Virus record (IMG/VR): IMGVR_UViG_3300022562_002256
Span: 1-64,000 of that record
Origin: a virus
DNA: 64,000 nucleotides
Direction: 5' to 3' (one strand)
Shown: positions 43,537-50,079 of the stretch, piece after piece
Layout of the letters: each line of letters begins with the position of its first letter
How positions within the stretch are numbered: position 1 is the stretch's first letter
The notes under the pieces: model-generated
Seen by the model: only the letters and a program-made list of their open reading frames with translations
Told to the model about the DNA's origin: nothing
The model's database searches: none
Program-made: the position numbers and the translations under genes

Positions 43537-44991
43537 ATGCCCAGTCCACCCGACCTCGCGCTCGACCCCAACGACGCCAAGCTCGCCGCTGGCACCAAGC
43601 CGGACGGTACGCCGAGTTCGATCGCGCTCGATGCAGACGGCCAACTCCTCGTCGGCGGCAGTGCGCTGCCGGCTGGCGCCGCAACCAGCGCGTTGCAGGG
43701 CGCTGGGCTGCCCTCTGCGTTCACCGATGGCGGTGGCGTCAAGGTCGGCATCGTCGACGCTTTGCCATCAGGAACAAACACCATCGGCGCAGTCACCGGT
43801 GCCGCTGGCACAGCGCTCGCGACCGAGGATGGGGTCCAGTCGCTTCGGAACCCGTATGGCGAGCTGCGACTGGAGACTGACGCTCTCCAGTATGCCAACT
43901 TCGCGGCCGGTCTCGCCGCTGCGAAGGTGACCCCGAATGTGACCGGCTCGGGCGCCGTGGTGTGGGACACCACCTATCGCTGCGCTCGCCTGTCGGTCGG
44001 AACCGCCGTGGGCACGGCTGTAATTTTGGCTAATACGCCGGGAACCTATCGAACGGACGACGTCAGCGGGCTGGAGGTCACCTTTTTCGTAGGTCCCGAG
44101 CAGGACGCCGCTCTTTTCATCGAAATCGGTGTCATCGCCGACCACGGCCTCGCGAGCTTGTTCCGGTTGACAGACGGCCGCGTGTACATCGTGATTGTCC
44201 ATGCGAGTCTCCCTGGAGGCGAGGAGGCATTTGAGATCACCGACGCCGTGGCGGCTGTCGATTTTGCGGTGGGATGGCATACGATCTCGCTGCGGACCGC
44301 TGGGGAAGGCGGCTGGTGGAGCGAGCTCCGGATTGATGGTATTGTGATTTTTGGTGGGTTTGCACCCCCCGGCCCGATTGTGAGTGCGGCGTGGCATGAA
44401 ACTCGTATCGGTGTGCGTGTGCGATCGACGGCGACCACGCCAGCCGGCGGTTCTGTCTACGTGCGAGGATTTTCGTTCACCACGAACAAGGTGCCGCCGA
44501 TTTCGATCGCGACGGTCACGCGCCCATCGGTGTCTGTTGGAACAACCCAGATCGGCTTGTTCGGCGTCGCCCCGGCCACGACCGTGAATGGGGTGTTCTG
44601 TTATCAGCCGGCCTGGCCAATCGAGTTGGCGCTGGTGACCGAAGCGACGTCGGGGATGGCTTTGTATGCCTATGAAGTAGCCCCATCGGCGCCCGATCCG
44701 TTCAACGGGACCGGAGCGTGGACCGCGGTGCCAGGAACCACGCTCGTGGCGAACACGACGCCCAGTGTCCTGCCTGCCGATCTTGTCTTGCCCGGCGCGA
44801 TATTGCGAGGGATAGCTACACTGTCGAACGACTTGGATCTTTCCGCCATCTACGGGCCCGGGCGTCTGGCGCTCTACGTCCCCCCGCTCGTGACGGCCAG
44901 TTCGCGCCTTGTTGTGGTAGCAGCTCGGGCCAGTGGCGCCGCCGCGCAGACGACCGGCGTTATGTCAATCGGAGTGCAGTACACCACGTAG
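43537..44991 (+). CDS. putative virion structural protein (fibre or lectin-like)
   Basis: Low-complexity G/A/T N-terminus, then beta-sandwich-like WHTISLR..LRIDG. Confidence 0.55.
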   Translation: MPSPPDLALDPNDAKLAAGTKPDGTPSSIALDADGQLLVGGSALPAGAATSALQGAGLPSAFTDGGGVKVGIVDALPSGTNTIGAVTGAAGTALATEDGVQSLRNPYGELRLETDALQYANFAAGLAAAKVTPNVTGSGAVVWDTTYRCARLSVGTAVGTAVILANTPGTYRTDDVSGLEVTFFVGPEQDAALFIEIGVIADHGLASLFRLTDGRVYIVIVHASLPGGEEAFEITDAVAAVDFAVGWHTISLRTAGEGGWWSELRIDGIVIFGGFAPPGPIVSAAWHETRIGVRVRSTATTPAGGSVYVRGFSFTTNKVPPISIATVTRPSVSVGTTQIGLFGVAPATTVNGVFCYQPAWPIELALVTEATSGMALYAYEVAPSAPDPFNGTGAWTAVPGTTLVANTTPSVLPADLVLPGAILRGIATLSNDLDLSAIYGPGRLALYVPPLVTASSRLVVVAARASGAAAQTTGVMSIGVQYTT

Positions 44992-45529
44992 ACCAATGGC
45001 ACGCCGCGGGGCATCGCATGGCGCGTGCCACTCCCACCCCCGCGATGCGCCCACGGTGCCCAGCAGCGCGGAGCGTGGCTGACACCGCTTGAAGGGTTGT
45101 CCCCTCCGTCACCACGTCGTCGATGAGGAGCACGTCCTCATGCGCGCCCAACCCATCCGGCTGATACGCCAGTGAGCGCAGGTGCTCGGCGATGGGTAGC
45201 CCGCCCCGCCCCTCTCGGCGACGCAGCCTCGATGACTCGACGTCGTACGCGCGCACCACTGGCTCCGCCACCCGCGAACCGCCACCCAGCCCGACCAGGG
45301 CTTCCGCGAGGGGCCGAAGGGAGGGGCGCGTCCACGAGGAGCGGGGCACCGGCACAACCACGCCACCGAACGAGGGAATGCACGCCGCAAGCGCCCGCGC
45401 CGAGCGGAGGGTGGCGTCGCGCTCCCCCGCTTTCAACGCCTCAATGATGTCCCGTGCGGCGGCGGTGCGCTGGCTCAACCCGCGGTAGCGCCGCGACAGG
45501 TAGGGGAGAGGAGCGACGATGTTGAGCAT
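44960..45529 (-). CDS. type I phosphoribosyltransferase (ComF-like)
   Basis: VVPVPRS...VLLIDDVVTEGTTL. Confidence 0.85.
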   Translation of the reverse strand: MLNIVAPLPYLSRRYRGLSQRTAAARDIIEALKAGERDATLRSARALAACIPSFGGVVVPVPRSSWTRPSLRPLAEALVGLGGGSRVAEPVVRAYDVESSRLRRREGRGGLPIAEHLRSLAYQPDGLGAHEDVLLIDDVVTEGTTLQAVSATLRAAGHRGRIAGVGVARAMRCPAACHWSTWCTALRLT

Positions 45530-45698
45530 ACGCCAGCAACTTGCACGATCCGCGCCACAACGGCTCAAGTGGTCAAGCCGCAGCGAACCGCTTCCGTCGC
45601 TCGGCGACCATCGCGTCTGCATACTTCGCGGCACTCTCTGCCATCGTCTCAAATGCGAGCGGAACGGGAAACCGCGCGTCGCGGCCACCATCAACCGG

Positions 45699-46361
45699 CT
45701 ACGTCGCGGCAAGCGCATTGAACACCTCTGCCTCGGTCAGAGGCCGCCCTGCGGTGTTGATGCGTCGGAAGACCTCACGCGCAAGCGCCTCGTCGCCGTG
45801 GACGACGAGCACGCCGACCCGTGTCTCGTGGAGTCTCGCCGCCGCTGCGTAAAGACGAGTCCCGCGGTCTCTAGCCAGGCGCCACGCTGTGTCGTCGGCC
45901 GACGACACAGACTCGTACAAGCCAGTTAAGAATTCTTGACATGCAGCGGTTTCAAGGACCGCGCGCACGGGGGCGTACCGCGCGGGGGGGCGTACCGCGC
46001 TCGCCGGCGCATCGTGTTCTGCCACCACGTATCGATCCTCGTCCATGTCGAATCGAACCGGTGACGTGCCATCCCATGCACGTGCGAGAGACGTGACCCG
46101 CTGCTGACCATCGATCAGCCACGCCGTGGGACCGGTCTGCCAGACTACGATCGTGCCCACGGGCACGCCACGGTCCAGCGAGTCCCATAACGCGGCCTCG
46201 TCCGCCGGTTCCCAGCAGAAGGGGCGCTGAAATGCGGGCACGCGCCACCCGCCTGCTGCGGCGTGCTCGGCGACGTGCGCGACCCACAACGCTGCCGGCT
46301 CAACGCCACCCCACAACGAGTGCCGGCGTGTGGGAGGCGGGGTATGTTTGGGCCGACTCAT
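45699..46361 (-). CDS. DUF262 (GmrSD N-terminal, ParB-like) protein
   Basis: VPAFQRPFCW...PVGTIVVW...LIDGQQRVTS...FRRINTAGRPL. Confidence 0.9.
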   Translation of the reverse strand: MSRPKHTPPPTRRHSLWGGVEPAALWVAHVAEHAAAGGWRVPAFQRPFCWEPADEAALWDSLDRGVPVGTIVVWQTGPTAWLIDGQQRVTSLARAWDGTSPVRFDMDEDRYVVAEHDAPASAVRPPARYAPVRAVLETAACQEFLTGLYESVSSADDTAWRLARDRGTRLYAAAARLHETRVGVLVVHGDEALAREVFRRINTAGRPLTEAEVFNALAAT

Positions 46362-46636
46362 TGCCCGACCTTGCGCCCCGCCACGTCCACGGCGTCGTCG
46401 ACGTAAACCCCACGTTCCTGGCGCCACGTGCGTCCCCATGTGGGCGGGGGGCCGTGCGCGTTCTCGCGCTCGAGTCGGGCGGGCACACCCTCAAGGCTGC
46501 CGGCCTTGAGGGACACCTGCGTTTGCGCTGGGCAGCGCCGCCCAAAAAGCTCTACCGCGTCGTCCGGTGACGCGGCGAGCAGCGCCCCGATGACCCGACC
46601 GGGGGGGAACACCTTGATAACGAACCACTCGCTCAT
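46358..46636 (-). CDS. hypothetical protein
   Basis: sigma54 motif 46649-46664 is 14 nt from ATG. Confidence 0.55.
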   Translation of the reverse strand: MSEWFVIKVFPPGRVIGALLAASPDDAVELFGRRCPAQTQVSLKAGSLEGVPARLERENAHGPPPTWGRTWRQERGVYVDDAVDVAGRKVGQ

Positions 46637-46648
46637 GGCCGGCCATGT

Positions 46649-46952
46649 TGCACAGGCCGTGCCAACCGAGATGCCCCTGCCGGCGAGGTGTTCAGTGGTT
46701 TGGTGGTGTTCAGTATTGGCTGTGGCGTTATGCCACGGAGTTGTTCCGGGATCGCGTGCTGACAGCCACTTGAGTGCTGGCTCTGCGATGTGTGGCACTC
46801 CGCCACACCGTGGCAACATGCCACGCCCCGCCGACGCGGCCAAGTGCTCGAAATCATTGACGCGGCGTGGATCGACCCCGATCCGCCACCGTAAGGCAAC
46901 ATACGGCACGCCCCCAACAACGCCACAACCACCAGGTGGCACGGCGCGTGCA
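46649..46952. repeat. intergenic cassette B, copy 2, between divergent sigma54 motifs
   Basis: Near-identical to 15242-15518. Confidence 0.85.
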
Positions 46953-47027
46953 TTCACCGTCTGGCGTAACGACGGTCGGCACCCGCAGCCCGCGTGTGCT
47001 ACAACCGCCGAGAACGGAGGAGACGGT

Positions 47028-47182
47028 CGCGGGGTTACGAGGTGGATCGGTCGAACTGGTCTTGTCGAGGTGATACCTCAATTAAGCGCGAAAGCGGCGC
47101 TGACCCCACCGAATCGAGGCACGTACGCACGAAAAATGTGGAGCACGGCGTGACCACACGTGATTGTCGACGTAACCCTGCG
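47028..47182 (+). ncRNA. candidate structured RNA
   Basis: 12-bp closing stem CGCGGGGTTACG/CGTAACCCTGCG with internal hairpins; downstream of sigma54 motif 46937-46952. Confidence 0.4.
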
Positions 47183-47206
47183 GCCAGTCCCCACGTCACG
47201 AATGGA

Positions 47207-47398
47207 GTTCGGTCAAGCATACCAGGGATAGAGTTCAGCCTGGGACGGTACGCGCCGCACCGTGAGAGTGCCAAGCGCCTCTTAGCCGTCAGTTAAAGCC
47301 CCGTAAAACCCCCCGCAGGGGGGCGGGGTCGGATGACCGGGCAAGTCATCCGACGTAAGCCGGGCACCCGACTCTATCCCTGATATGCTCGACCGAAC
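47207..47398. ncRNA. candidate ~190-nt structured RNA closed by a 28-bp stem
   Basis: 47207-47234 pairs with 47371-47398 (26/28); inner 10-bp hairpin GTCGGATGAC/GTCATCCGAC. Confidence 0.55.
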
Positions 47399-47664
47399 CC
47401 CCACCTGTCTGCGGCACGCATTATGCATGAGTTCTCGACGTCGGCGTCGGCGACAGCCGACCGACCCGGTAGGCGGTGACCAATCCGCACCGGTCATCCC
47501 ACCCCGGCCTCTCCGGAGGCACCCACGTCCCGCCACCAGGCGGCCCTAACTGAGCCTCCCGCAAGGTCACCTCTCCCCGCCGTGGTGCGGCGAGTGGGCG
47601 ACCACCGGGAGCGACGACGAAGGAGCATGATGTCAGCGCGAAGCGATGTCGCCGCGCTGACCTT

Positions 47665-47747
47665 GGAGGGTTGCCCGAGTGGTCAAAGGGAGCAGATTGT
47701 AAATCTGCCGGCGAAAGCCTTCGGTGGTTCGAGTCCACCACCCCCCA
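47665..47747 (+). tRNA. tRNA-Tyr (GTA), no encoded CCA
   Basis: GCAGA-TTGTAAA-TCTGC anticodon arm, class II variable arm, GGTGG-TTCGAGT-CCACC; A3-C70 mismatch. Confidence 0.92.
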
Positions 47748-47775
47748 CCCAATTTCAATACCAACGGAGCACCAC

Positions 47776-48000
47776 ATGGCTACATCGATCCGATCCCCCC
47801 TTGCACGCGCGCGTCCCCATGCCGCGCGCCTCGCGGTCGTCGACGAGATGCCCGAGGCTGCCGACCTGCCATACCCTAACGACGGCGACTCGCTGGCCGT
47901 TTGGCGAGGCTTTGTCATCAATGCGGCCAACGCCCCGTCGGCGCCGCCGTCGTGGCACCTGACCGCCCTTGCGGCGCTCGTCGGCGAGGTGTCCGCGTGA
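47776..48000 (+). CDS. hypothetical protein
   Basis: GGAG SD. Confidence 0.5.
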   Translation: MATSIRSPLARARPHAARLAVVDEMPEAADLPYPNDGDSLAVWRGFVINAANAPSAPPSWHLTALAALVGEVSA

Positions 48001-48185
48001 AGCGCGTCGAGCAATTGTTGGACGTCATCGGCGATGACCAGCTACCAGCGACGCTGCGGTGGTTAGCCGCGTAGCATGCCCGGCAAGCCATCGCGGCCGA
48101 CGTGGGCCTGGGCGCGCTCGCGGGCCTTATCGCGGATGTCTGCTGACGCTCGCCGCCCTCCAGGCGCCTTGCGGAGTGTCCGCTC

Positions 48186-49349
48186 ATGGCTATGTTGGCG
48201 GCCATGGATTTTAGTCTTGCAGCGAAGGATTTCAGCGCAGCCGTACACCGCTGTACGGCTGCGACCAACAAAACCAGCGCGATGCCGGTGCTCGCAACCG
48301 TGTTGCTCCGGGCGGGCCCCGGTGAAGTCACGGTCACTGGCACCGACCTCTACAACACCGTCGCCGTTCGGGTGGCGGCTGATGTGGCGCGACCGGGGGC
48401 GTACTGCCTCGATGGGGTCGACCTGGCCAAGCGCATCCAAGCGATGCCGGGGGGAGTCGTCCAGATCGTTCAGGCTCCGCCAGCGACCCCGGATACCCCG
48501 CTCGGTCCCGTAAAAATCCAGGCAGTGGGGACACGACGGGCCTTCGTCATGAGTGGGATCCCCGCTCATGACTACCCAAACGTGGAGGCGTCGCTCGACG
48601 CCACCCCACTCGCCTTGCCCGCCGGGGTGCTCACGCGACTGCTACGCCAGGTCATGGCGTCGATTTCGACGGACGAAACCCGAGCACACGTCAACTGCGC
48701 TCGGGTGGAGTTGAAGGGTTCGTCGGCGCGCATGGTGTCAACCGACGGGCATCGTTTGACCCTTGCCACCGCCACCTTGCCCGACAAGGCGCTCCCCTGC
48801 GTCGAGGCGCTGCTCTCGCGCGCGGCGGCTGGCATCCTGCGCAAGCTCTTGGAAGAGGTGAACCCAGCCACGGATGTCAGCCTGCGTTTTGCATCGCCTT
48901 CGCTTGTTGTAAGCGTGGGGAACGTCACATTTACGACAAAGCTCGTAGACGCGGCGTTCCCGCCATATCAGCAGGTCGTTCCCGCCCCGCGCGACGTGTC
49001 GTACCGGGTTGCGCGCCTTCCCCTCCTGGACATGGTGAAGGCTGTCGCGATTGCGAGCGACACCCACGGGATTCGACTGACGTTTGGTCAGGACAATATC
49101 CTCGCGGAGGGGAACAATGCCGAGCTTGGAAGCGGATCCGACGAGATCGGATGTGTGGCCGGTCCTGGCGCGGTTCCACCGGCATTTGTAGCTGCCTTCA
49201 ACTCGAGTTACCTCCGGGACGCGCTGAGCGTCACCGACGTGGACGAGGTGGCTCTGACGATCGACGGGGAGCTCTCCCCGCTGGTCATCAAACCAGTCGG
49301 AGCCGACGAGCCGTCTTACCTGGCAGTCGTGATGCCCATGCGGGTCTGA
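48186..49349 (+). CDS. dnaN: DNA polymerase III sliding clamp (beta subunit)
   Basis: MPVLATVLL..VTGTDL, STDETRAHVNC, VSTDGHRL, FPPYQQVVP, AFNSSYLRDAL, YLAVVMPMR. Confidence 0.95.
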   Translation: MAMLAAMDFSLAAKDFSAAVHRCTAATNKTSAMPVLATVLLRAGPGEVTVTGTDLYNTVAVRVAADVARPGAYCLDGVDLAKRIQAMPGGVVQIVQAPPATPDTPLGPVKIQAVGTRRAFVMSGIPAHDYPNVEASLDATPLALPAGVLTRLLRQVMASISTDETRAHVNCARVELKGSSARMVSTDGHRLTLATATLPDKALPCVEALLSRAAAGILRKLLEEVNPATDVSLRFASPSLVVSVGNVTFTTKLVDAAFPPYQQVVPAPRDVSYRVARLPLLDMVKAVAIASDTHGIRLTFGQDNILAEGNNAELGSGSDEIGCVAGPGAVPPAFVAAFNSSYLRDALSVTDVDEVALTIDGELSPLVIKPVGADEPSYLAVVMPMRV

Positions 49350-49350
49350 C

Positions 49351-49548
49351 CTACTGCGCGGCACACTTGTGGGGATTGCCGTGATTGGCGGGGAGGCACT
49401 CGCCACACTCCTGGCAGAAAGCGTCGTCTCCGTAGCAAGCGGGGCAGACGAGCTTGGCGTCCTCGATCCGGTGGATTGGCCACCCCTTGCGGATCTCGCA
49501 AGGGGTGAGCACCGCGTGGCATACCTGGCAGTCGATGGTGGTGGTCAT
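49351..49548 (-). CDS. small zinc-finger protein
   Basis: CQVC, CPAC, CQECGEC. Confidence 0.55.
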   Translation of the reverse strand: MTTTIDCQVCHAVLTPCEIRKGWPIHRIEDAKLVCPACYGDDAFCQECGECLPANHGNPHKCAAQ

Positions 49549-49732
49549 GGGTGGTTTCATTCGTCGGTGGTTTCGTCCGCCAGATCCATGGCCAATTCGT
49601 AGTAGTGCAGGAGTTCCAGGTCGCGGTGCATTTCGTCGGTGGTGGTGTAGGTTCCGTAATCGCAGGTGGTGGTATCCATATGGGTGCCTCGTCGGTGGAT
49701 TGGTGGTTGCCGTCGTTACGCCCATAGACACT

Positions 49733-50079
49733 TGCACGCACCGTGCCAACAGGCAACGCGGGGTCGCCATGCCCACAAACCAGCGGCGATCTGGCGGAGT
49801 TGGCACTCCGCCCCGAACTTCGCGCGCTTGGATGACGACACATGGCGCGCACTTCTTGCGTTTAGCCGGCAGAATTTACCGGCACCTGATGGCAGCCACT
49901 TGAGTGCTACATCGTGAGCGCCACCGTAAGCGGATTCACCAACCTGCCAAAATCGACGCGCAAACGGTGCGTGTTGGGATCATAGTCCAGAATCGGCGGA
50001 GCGCCCGGCTGGACTCAGCCCCCGAAACCACGACGGTTTCGATATGGCGACGTAGAGCACCGTTGGCACGGTGCGTGCA
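49733..50079. repeat. intergenic cassette A, copy 3 (49847-50079), between divergent sigma54 motifs
   Basis: TGGCACGGTGCGTGCA at 49733-49748 (-) and 50064-50079 (+). Confidence 0.85.

Follow-up and report, generated by a model that had tools for sequence, protein, structure and literature searches.

IMG/VR record IMGVR_UViG_3300022562_002256 is a complete phage genome of 198,045 bp that carries direct terminal repeats, and the window analysed here covers its first 64 kb. The window holds a gene-free stretch at positions 46640–47775 that ends in a tRNA-Tyr gene, and within this stretch a folded element of 198 nucleotides (nt), which we call domain 2 and which is the most stable 200-nt fold of the whole genome. 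The locus is a real and striking orphan RNA-structure element in the non-coding, promoter-flanked leader of the phage tRNA-Tyr operon. Our favoured reading, which we put forward tentatively, is that the first of two sigma54-type promoters (P1) makes a non-coding RNA of ~440 nt, and that the 3′ helix of this RNA insulates the unit formed by the second promoter (P2), tRNA-Tyr and the sliding clamp gene dnaN, through cleavage by RNase III or through termination at a hairpin that lacks a U-tract. The features on which the argument turns are the following, in window coordinates:

46767–46861, no strand assigned: upstream activator-type cassette, with CACTTGAGTG at 46767 and AATCATTGAC at 46852
46937–46952, plus strand: promoter P1 (TGGCACGGCGCGTGCA), position weight matrix (PWM) score 25.1 bits
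46964–46975, plus strand: predicted start of the P1 transcript (GCGTAACGACGG); the same 12-mer stands at the same spacing after promoter 49748(−)
47025–47185, plus strand: domain 1, a 15-bp closing helix (47025–47039/47171–47185) round a 131-nt interior
47204–47401, plus strand: domain 2, 198 nt, a 31-bp helix with arms 47204–47234/47371–47401 (28 of 31 positions paired) and 136 nt between the arms
47412–47427, plus strand: promoter P2 (CGGCACGCATTATGCA, then TGAG), PWM score 11.1 bits
47438–47663, plus strand: non-coding leader between P2 and the tRNA, containing hairpins at 47447–62, 47507–20 and 47632–61
47664–47751, plus strand: tRNA-Tyr as called by ARAGORN (47665–47747 in Rfam, 50.9 bits), with anticodon GTA and a long variable arm

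The standing of domain 2 within the genome was obtained by folding all 200-nt windows (step 50, both strands, 3957 windows) and regressing the folding energy on G+C. The 200-nt window at 47201 ranked first of the 3957 on each strand, with z-scores of −4.25 on the plus and −5.13 on the minus strand, and domain 2 itself gave z-scores of −7.5 (plus) and −9.1 (minus) against shuffled sequences. An earlier note on this DNA had described a structured locus of ~800 bp, a description that holds for 47204–47401 and is overstated for the rest: domain 1 (shuffle z −2.1 plus, −1.1 minus) and the tRNA leader (−2.55 plus, −2.05 minus) are ordinary to marginal and unremarkable in the genome-wide ranking, and the remaining 200-nt windows between 46800 and 47650 do not stand out on the plus strand (z −0.9 to +1.6). 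The individual stems named in the earlier note are all present. Its 28-bp stem (47207–47234/47371–47398, 26 of 28 paired) is in fact longer, reaching the 31 bp given above, its 12-bp stem (47028–47039/47171–47182) is part of the 15-bp helix of domain 1, which contains two G·U pairs on the plus strand, its perfect 10-bp hairpin lies at 47328–47337/47345–47354, and the hairpins that it placed before the tRNA are those at 47447–62, 47507–20 and 47632–61.

The long helix of domain 2 encloses a 6-bp helix (47238–43/47360–65), a hairpin arm (47244–90), a G/C hairpin (47300–27) and the 10-bp hairpin (47328–54), and this interior closes into a coaxial junction, for which we obtained a z-score of −3.17 on the plus strand versus −1.87 on the minus strand. 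When the 788-nt transcript is folded as a whole, the closing helices of domains 1 and 2 form with pair probabilities of ~1. We note in addition that a segment of the tRNA leader, 47490–47511, is complementary at 19 of 22 positions to 47319–47340 within domain 2, with a predicted intermolecular duplex energy of −47.6 kcal/mol, and that the pairing of these two segments in cis has a probability of 0 in the equilibrium fold. Domain 2 is single-copy in the phage, and no paralogy was found between domains 1 and 2, or between either of them and the surroundings of the other two RNA genes.

The stretch 46640–47775 is non-coding, in agreement with the earlier statement that it holds no convincing open reading frame (ORF). 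The periodicity of G+C at third codon positions (GC3) is absent from ~46640 to 47775, and under a codon log-likelihood model, for which 29 long genes of the phage served as the training set, all ORFs overlapping the stretch score between −0.13 and −0.42 per codon, within the range of wrong reading frames (mean −0.40, 95th percentile +0.04); the genes beside it, orf74 and dnaN, score +0.20 and +0.28, respectively. The three largest overlapping ORFs, which are those that were scanned, have no match in Pfam. The tRNA-Tyr expected at the end of the stretch was recovered by both ARAGORN and Rfam (50.9 bits), with its cloverleaf, GUA anticodon and long variable arm all present. As oddities of this tRNA, we observed an A3·C70 mismatch in the acceptor stem, a D stem of 3 bp, and a 3′ end in which CCA is not encoded (A-CCC-A instead).

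The two sigma54 motifs that had been seen pointing into the stretch, at 46937 and 47412, proved to be members of a phage-wide family that face the tRNA. The family motif, TGGCACGG-N3-GTGCA, recurs throughout the genome, with 70 sites above 11 bits versus 1–10 per Markov-simulated genome (about 5 expected), and with 43 sites above 20 bits versus none in the simulated genomes. At most strict-core sites, an ATG lies 12–13 nt past the TGCA, a spacing that, judged from sequence, implies leaderless mRNAs; at P1 and P2 there is no start codon in the leaderless position. By sequence family, with GG and GC elements at a fixed spacing, P1 and P2 are sigma54-type promoters. Upstream of P1, AATCATTGAC lies exactly 85 nt 5′ of the promoter, the same distance as at promoters 15503(+), 106258(−) and 157144(−), and for CACTTGAGTG, taken with up to one mismatch, 13 of the 17 sites have a promoter within 200 nt. 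The −12 variant of P2, GGCACGnATnATGCATGAG, is common to P2 and promoter 32680(−), which belongs to a tRNA-like gene.

Several further observations concern this promoter family. The conserved upstream cassettes of the phage promoters are CACTTGAGTG, GGTAAATTCTGCC and, at −85, AATCATTGAC. The two copies of GCGTAACGACGG differ in what they lead, the copy at 46964–46975 the non-coding RNA and that at 49710–49721(−) the leadered mRNA of small ORFs. Examples of promoters elsewhere in the window are 37425(+), 46664(−), 49748(−), 50064(+) and 57486(+), and there are promoter-poor zones, with no site above 15 bits from 65.4 to 106.2 kb or past 175 kb.

As regards the strand, both promoters, the orientation of the genes, the G·U pairs of domain 1 and the z-score of the domain 2 interior (−3.17 vs −1.87) favour the plus strand, and from 46664 to 49748 no promoter site on the minus strand exceeds 10 bits; taken together, we consider function on the plus strand probable. 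The earlier note had pointed out that the mismatches of the long stem would be G·U pairs on the minus strand, and had suggested on that ground that the element may be antisense. The pairing is as described, at three of three positions in the extended stem (A·C on the plus strand), and all three mismatches are transitions. These three positions (3/3, two-tailed p about 0.25) are the sole basis of the antisense suggestion, which is not supported. The fold statistics, the family membership and orientation of the promoters and the lack of coding signal are direct observations.

Transcription of the locus, cleavage or termination at the helix, and any function in trans we infer from sequence, as follows. 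Positions 46964–47663 (~700 bases) would be transcribed on the plus strand as non-coding RNA. P1, with its own upstream activator cassette, would start an RNA of ~440 nt that folds into domains 1 and 2, and the 31-bp helix would form only in this P1-started RNA. Either host RNase III would cut the long duplex, or the hairpin would terminate transcription without a U-tract, and P1 read-through would thereby be uncoupled from the P2 unit (leader, tRNA-Tyr, orf74 and dnaN), leaving the latter dependent on P2 alone. Cleavage would also free a branched RNA of ~140–190 nt, which might be stable and act by itself, for example by pairing with leader segment 47490–47511.

What supports an insulator is, on the one hand, the strength of P1 (25.1 bits) together with a family cassette at the canonical distance, and on the other hand, the P2 variant common to the promoter of an RNA gene. 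In the RNase III route, the enzyme would be that of the host. The nearest relatives of the phage sliding clamp (dnaN, 48186–49349) are ~40% identical and come from Polyangiaceae, for example Sorangium and Polyangium, and for this reason the host is probably a myxobacterium. The three Polyangiaceae genomes that we searched (Sorangium, Polyangium and Minicystis) each encode one sigma54 and one RNase III, and domain searches of the phage found no gene for sigma54, an enhancer-binding AAA+ domain or RNase III; this distribution of RNase III and sigma54 genes supports the insulator reading.

The substrates of RNase III are duplexes of at least ~20 bp; in T7 early RNA its cuts separate the cistrons, and it frees rRNA from the long stems on either side. 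The domain 2 helix, with 28 of 31 positions paired, is an intramolecular duplex above ~20 bp, and its cleavage by RNase III is itself predicted only. It resembles the helices of T7 early RNA and of the 16S and 23S rRNA stems in spanning more than two helical turns and in pairing the two sequences on either side of an RNA segment in a longer transcript, and here it lies between two expression units, with a tRNA to be processed from the same predicted transcript. In contrast to the T7 sites, the stems of which are short and irregular, the domain 2 helix is 31 bp long and near-perfect, encloses a 136-nt branched RNA and abuts a sigma54-type promoter, and cleavage is a prediction here. As to termination, a terminator scan found no intrinsic terminator between 46576 and 47889, that is, no G+C-rich hairpin with a U-tract; strong hairpins elsewhere in the phage, one of them beginning at a stop codon, likewise lack U-tracts, and those at gene ends may terminate transcription in this way.

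The position of the helix relative to P2 can be compared with that of other inverted repeats, which we ranked over the whole genome with loops of up to 500 nt. Some of the longest are divergent promoter pairs, and the three longest that are not (at 173583, 47204 and 117852) each have an arm whose end lies 4–10 nt 5′ of a plus-strand promoter, measured to its −24 element; in domain 2 this is the 3′ arm, which stops 10 nt 5′ of P2. The rough chance of such promoter abutment is <0.01 per repeat, or about 0.08 if repeats are restricted to intergenic DNA. A strong hairpin directly 5′ of a promoter was found at 2 of 70 promoters versus 0 of 300 random sites, and no common sequence was found among the three promoter-adjacent repeats.

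The repeat at 117852–117961 has 25-bp arms (22 of 25 paired) and a loop of 60 nt, and ends 4 nt before promoter 117966(+). A convergent ORF, driven by promoter 118449(−), has its stop codon ~180 nt before the repeat, which lies between an upstream cassette and 117966(+), a position that suits a terminator or insulator. No inverted repeat of the genome is longer than the one at 173583–173890 (30 of 35 paired, with a 24-bp perfect core). Its left arm takes in the stop codon of the gene upstream and stops 5 nt short of promoter 173623(+), and its right arm lies within a small zinc-ribbon ORF driven by that promoter, such that a read-through RNA would fold over the zinc-ribbon ORF, and a promoter-started RNA would not.

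A number of points weigh against the insulator. P2 is a weak match at 11.1 bits, a score range in which about one-third of sites are expected by chance. Hairpins directly upstream are not general among the promoters (2/70), and at 173583 the promoter sits within the loop, which a terminator model does not explain. The three mismatches of the stem are A·C on the plus strand and G·U on the minus strand, and the 136-nt branched interior would be superfluous for a plain processing site or terminator. Finally, transcription is a prediction from sequence, and the helix is seen in a single genome. Were the helix indeed an RNA insulator, it would show how a large phage that seemingly draws much of its gene expression from host sigma54 keeps neighbouring units independent. 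Under either reading, insulator or functional RNA, the element is clean, single-copy and open to experiment, with one promoter, one helix and one tRNA. To our knowledge, an insulator helix just before a sigma54-type promoter is a layout that has not been described for phages.

The branched interior goes beyond what an insulator needs, and hence a released stable RNA with a role of its own stays a live rival. Here, domain 2 or the whole P1 RNA would be a trans-acting non-coding RNA, such as a decoy or sponge that takes up a host protein (RNA polymerase in the manner of 6S RNA, or a factor that binds double-stranded RNA) or a regulator that would pair with the tRNA-Tyr leader, and the helix would merely be a stabilising or processing frame. 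This is possible, if doubtful. The top-ranked fold of the genome, the significant plus-strand structure of the interior, a strong promoter of its own and the lack of an ORF would all fit such an RNA, as would the 19/22 complementarity of 47319–40 to 47490–511 at −47.6 kcal/mol, which is set against a probability of 0 for this leader pairing in cis. A precedent for stable RNAs made together with tRNAs is provided by RNAs C and D of phage T4, which come from its tRNA gene cluster. The likeness to these is that structured phage RNAs are co-located, and probably co-transcribed, with a tRNA; the differences are that there is no sequence relation, that the RNA here is 5′ of a single tRNA, and that it has its own sigma54-type promoter. 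Against a function in trans stand the lack of any Rfam family match, the dissimilarity to 6S RNA of the host lineage in both sequence and shape, and the lack of a gene in the phage for a partner protein such as TROVE/Ro60. If the excised RNA is functional, it would add a new member to the non-coding RNAs of phages, one produced jointly with tRNA-Tyr.

The covariance-model search against Rfam that the earlier note had proposed was run, and no known family beyond the tRNA was found at the locus: at gathering scores for the window and at E ≤ 10 for the locus, the search returned tRNA plus chance-level matches to AS1726, VA and TYMV_upPK only. The analogy to 6S RNA drawn in the earlier note is not supported by this comparison. 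What the two have in common is a size of ~200 nt, a closing helix, the absence of coding and, here, a phage seemingly reliant on an alternative sigma factor; 6S RNA, which binds sigma70 holoenzyme and templates pRNA, has a large central bubble and a long internal stem, whereas domain 2 has a 31-bp near-perfect helix and a multi-branch interior. The 6S model RF00013 gave no match at E ≤ 10 with permissive filters, and as a positive control it found the 6S RNA of Sorangium, Polyangium and Minicystis at 43.8–47.2 bits, with which domain 2 gave no alignment and no common sequence. A 6S RNA is thus not supported, given the null result with RF00013, the lack of sequence likeness, and a predicted junction with three short hairpin arms in place of an irregular rod. 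Y RNA and YrlA were likewise rejected, with no Rfam match and no TROVE domain in the phage.

The other serious rival, which we consider somewhat unlikely, is a DNA-level or relic origin of the near-perfect repeat, with no RNA function selected: the inverted repeat would be a quasi-palindrome that arose beside a promoter when templates switched or cassettes were shuffled, or it would modulate P2 as a cruciform or as a site for protein binding. The 28 of 31 paired positions with mismatches that are all transitions, as in a young duplication, are what this origin would leave, and the top inverted repeats of the genome are all promoter pairs or abut promoters. The repeat at 117852 also lies between a cassette and a promoter with no plus-strand promoter seen upstream of it, and the three promoter-adjacent repeats are without a common sequence. 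What such an origin does not account for is an interior that forms a coaxial junction with a z-score of −3.17 on the transcribed strand; moreover, with P1 directly upstream, transcription is expected, and the phage has no recombinase to act on the repeat.

A mobile element of the miniature inverted-repeat transposable element (MITE) type, an invertible promoter switch or a replication origin are all improbable. Terminal repeats of 31 bp round 136 bp are MITE-sized, but there is no target-site duplication, and the element occurs once in the phage and was found neither in 304 Polyangiales genomes nor in IMG/VR; for an inverton, the phage has no serine or tyrosine recombinase (PF00239, PF00589). 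The locus does lie at a point of divergent transcription near dnaN, as might an origin, but the extremes of GC skew are at 71.7 and 116.5 kb, away from the locus, and no AT-rich unwinding region or cluster of DnaA boxes was seen by eye.

Even less probable in our view is an RNA-only anti-defence island, in which a strongly expressed branched RNA with a long helix would imitate a structured host RNA, of the retron type or another, or serve as a double-stranded RNA decoy, beside a rescue tRNA-Tyr that replaces host tRNA-Tyr cut by nucleases of the PtuAB type. We know of no phage RNA decoy of this kind. A tRNA-Tyr standing alone in a phage is noteworthy, and the motivation for considering such an island is that Retron-Eco7 and Septu PtuAB cleave tRNA-Tyr, and that infection is rescued by phage tRNA-Tyr (PMC11555353, PMC13096335).

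The least probable reading, and in our view a very remote one, is an orphan retron-like msr-msd RNA in which the repeat would be a1/a2, used with a host reverse transcriptase (RT) or as a decoy against host retrons, beside the rescue tRNA-Tyr. The ends of msr-msd RNAs hybridise and enclose one to three hairpins followed by a stem-loop (PMC7736814), a general topology that domain 2 fits in having terminal repeats able to hybridise (31 bp) and internal hairpins; in addition, the likely host lineage is myxobacterial, candidate-host genomes carry RTs, and tRNA-Tyr is a known target of Retron-Eco7 and Septu PtuAB (PMC11555353, PMC13096335). Against this, the phage has no RT (PF00078, six frames of the complete 198-kb genome), there is no match to an Rfam retron msr, no similar sequence occurs in 3 Polyangiaceae genomes or in 301 genomes of that order, a comparable terminal repeat was found at none of 9 host RT loci, and the nearby PRTase matches ShosT and no retron-effector model. 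Less clearly, the longest internal stem of the predicted fold is 10 bp, in place of a long msd stem, and the first unpaired bases past the 5′ arm are UC, in place of an unpaired G. As a separate observation, the chromosome of Sorangium sp. So ce513 (L170, 2917–3010) contains a near-perfect 34-bp hairpin (33 of 34 paired, loop 26) ~0.7 kb 5′ of a minus-strand RT match; this hairpin is a possible retron msd stem of a candidate host.

Searches for homologues cover both the element and the proteins around it. In IMG/VR, neither the clamp, the sheath and the SbcCD-fusion proteins nor a 24-nt piece of the stem gave a match, and the clamp found only two unrelated matches at 19% identity in JGI metagenomes. 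INPHARED returned the tRNA only or nothing (blastn, tblastn), a 17-nt piece of the upstream cassette gave chance matches only, and so did BLAST against candidate-host genomes (304 Polyangiales genomes). Relatives in IMG/VR, taken by alignment of the major capsid protein, are at most 49% identical and not syntenic where checked, and in the one complete relative with a clamp (G305) there is no non-coding gap, tRNA or TGGCAC promoter in 20 kb round the clamp. Closer relatives are known as proteins only, with major capsid proteins 58–62% identical on contigs of 2–13 kb. A search with the promoter pattern found the same promoter type on other IMG/VR contigs, namely L187 (IMGVR_UViG_3300014613_000025), L186/L191 (IMGVR_UViG_3300037522_000055) and L190, with no match to the 47204 locus in any of them. 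L187 has 11 promoter sites in 13 kb on a single strand, mostly followed by an ATG, and L190 has four in tandem.

The G+C content of the phage is 66%, and its matches in PHROGs to a portal, a maturation protease, a major head protein and a tail sheath mark it, by sequence, as a myovirus. A second non-coding gap, at 1622–2472 of the window (~850 bp, between divergent genes), contains the other tRNA of the phage, at 2164–2228, which was called by Rfam only (ARAGORN gave none), and has no sequence similarity to the 47204 locus. The neighbours of the non-coding stretch are the following:

46358–46636, minus strand: leaderless ORF of 92 amino acids, at the left edge of the non-coding gap and the first gene of a divergent operon
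46649–46664, minus strand: sigma54-type promoter of the divergent operon, PWM score 25.0 bits
47776–48000, plus strand: orf74, first coding gene of the P2 unit, with GGAG 8 nt 5′ of its ATG and a GC3 signal
48186–49349, plus strand: dnaN, which follows orf74 and has Pfam matches

At promoter 46664(−), an ATG lies 12 nt past the TGCA, in frame with the ORF 46358–46957. The divergent operon, 44960–46636(−), comprises in order the 92-amino-acid ORF, a DUF262 protein and a ShosT-like PRTase (Pfam, PADLOC), the stand-alone DUF262 being a GmrSD_N match at 9.5e-24 and the PRTase matching the PADLOC ShosT model at 1.3e-11. Coding scores in this operon are low (about 0.05–0.06), which may reflect recent acquisition.

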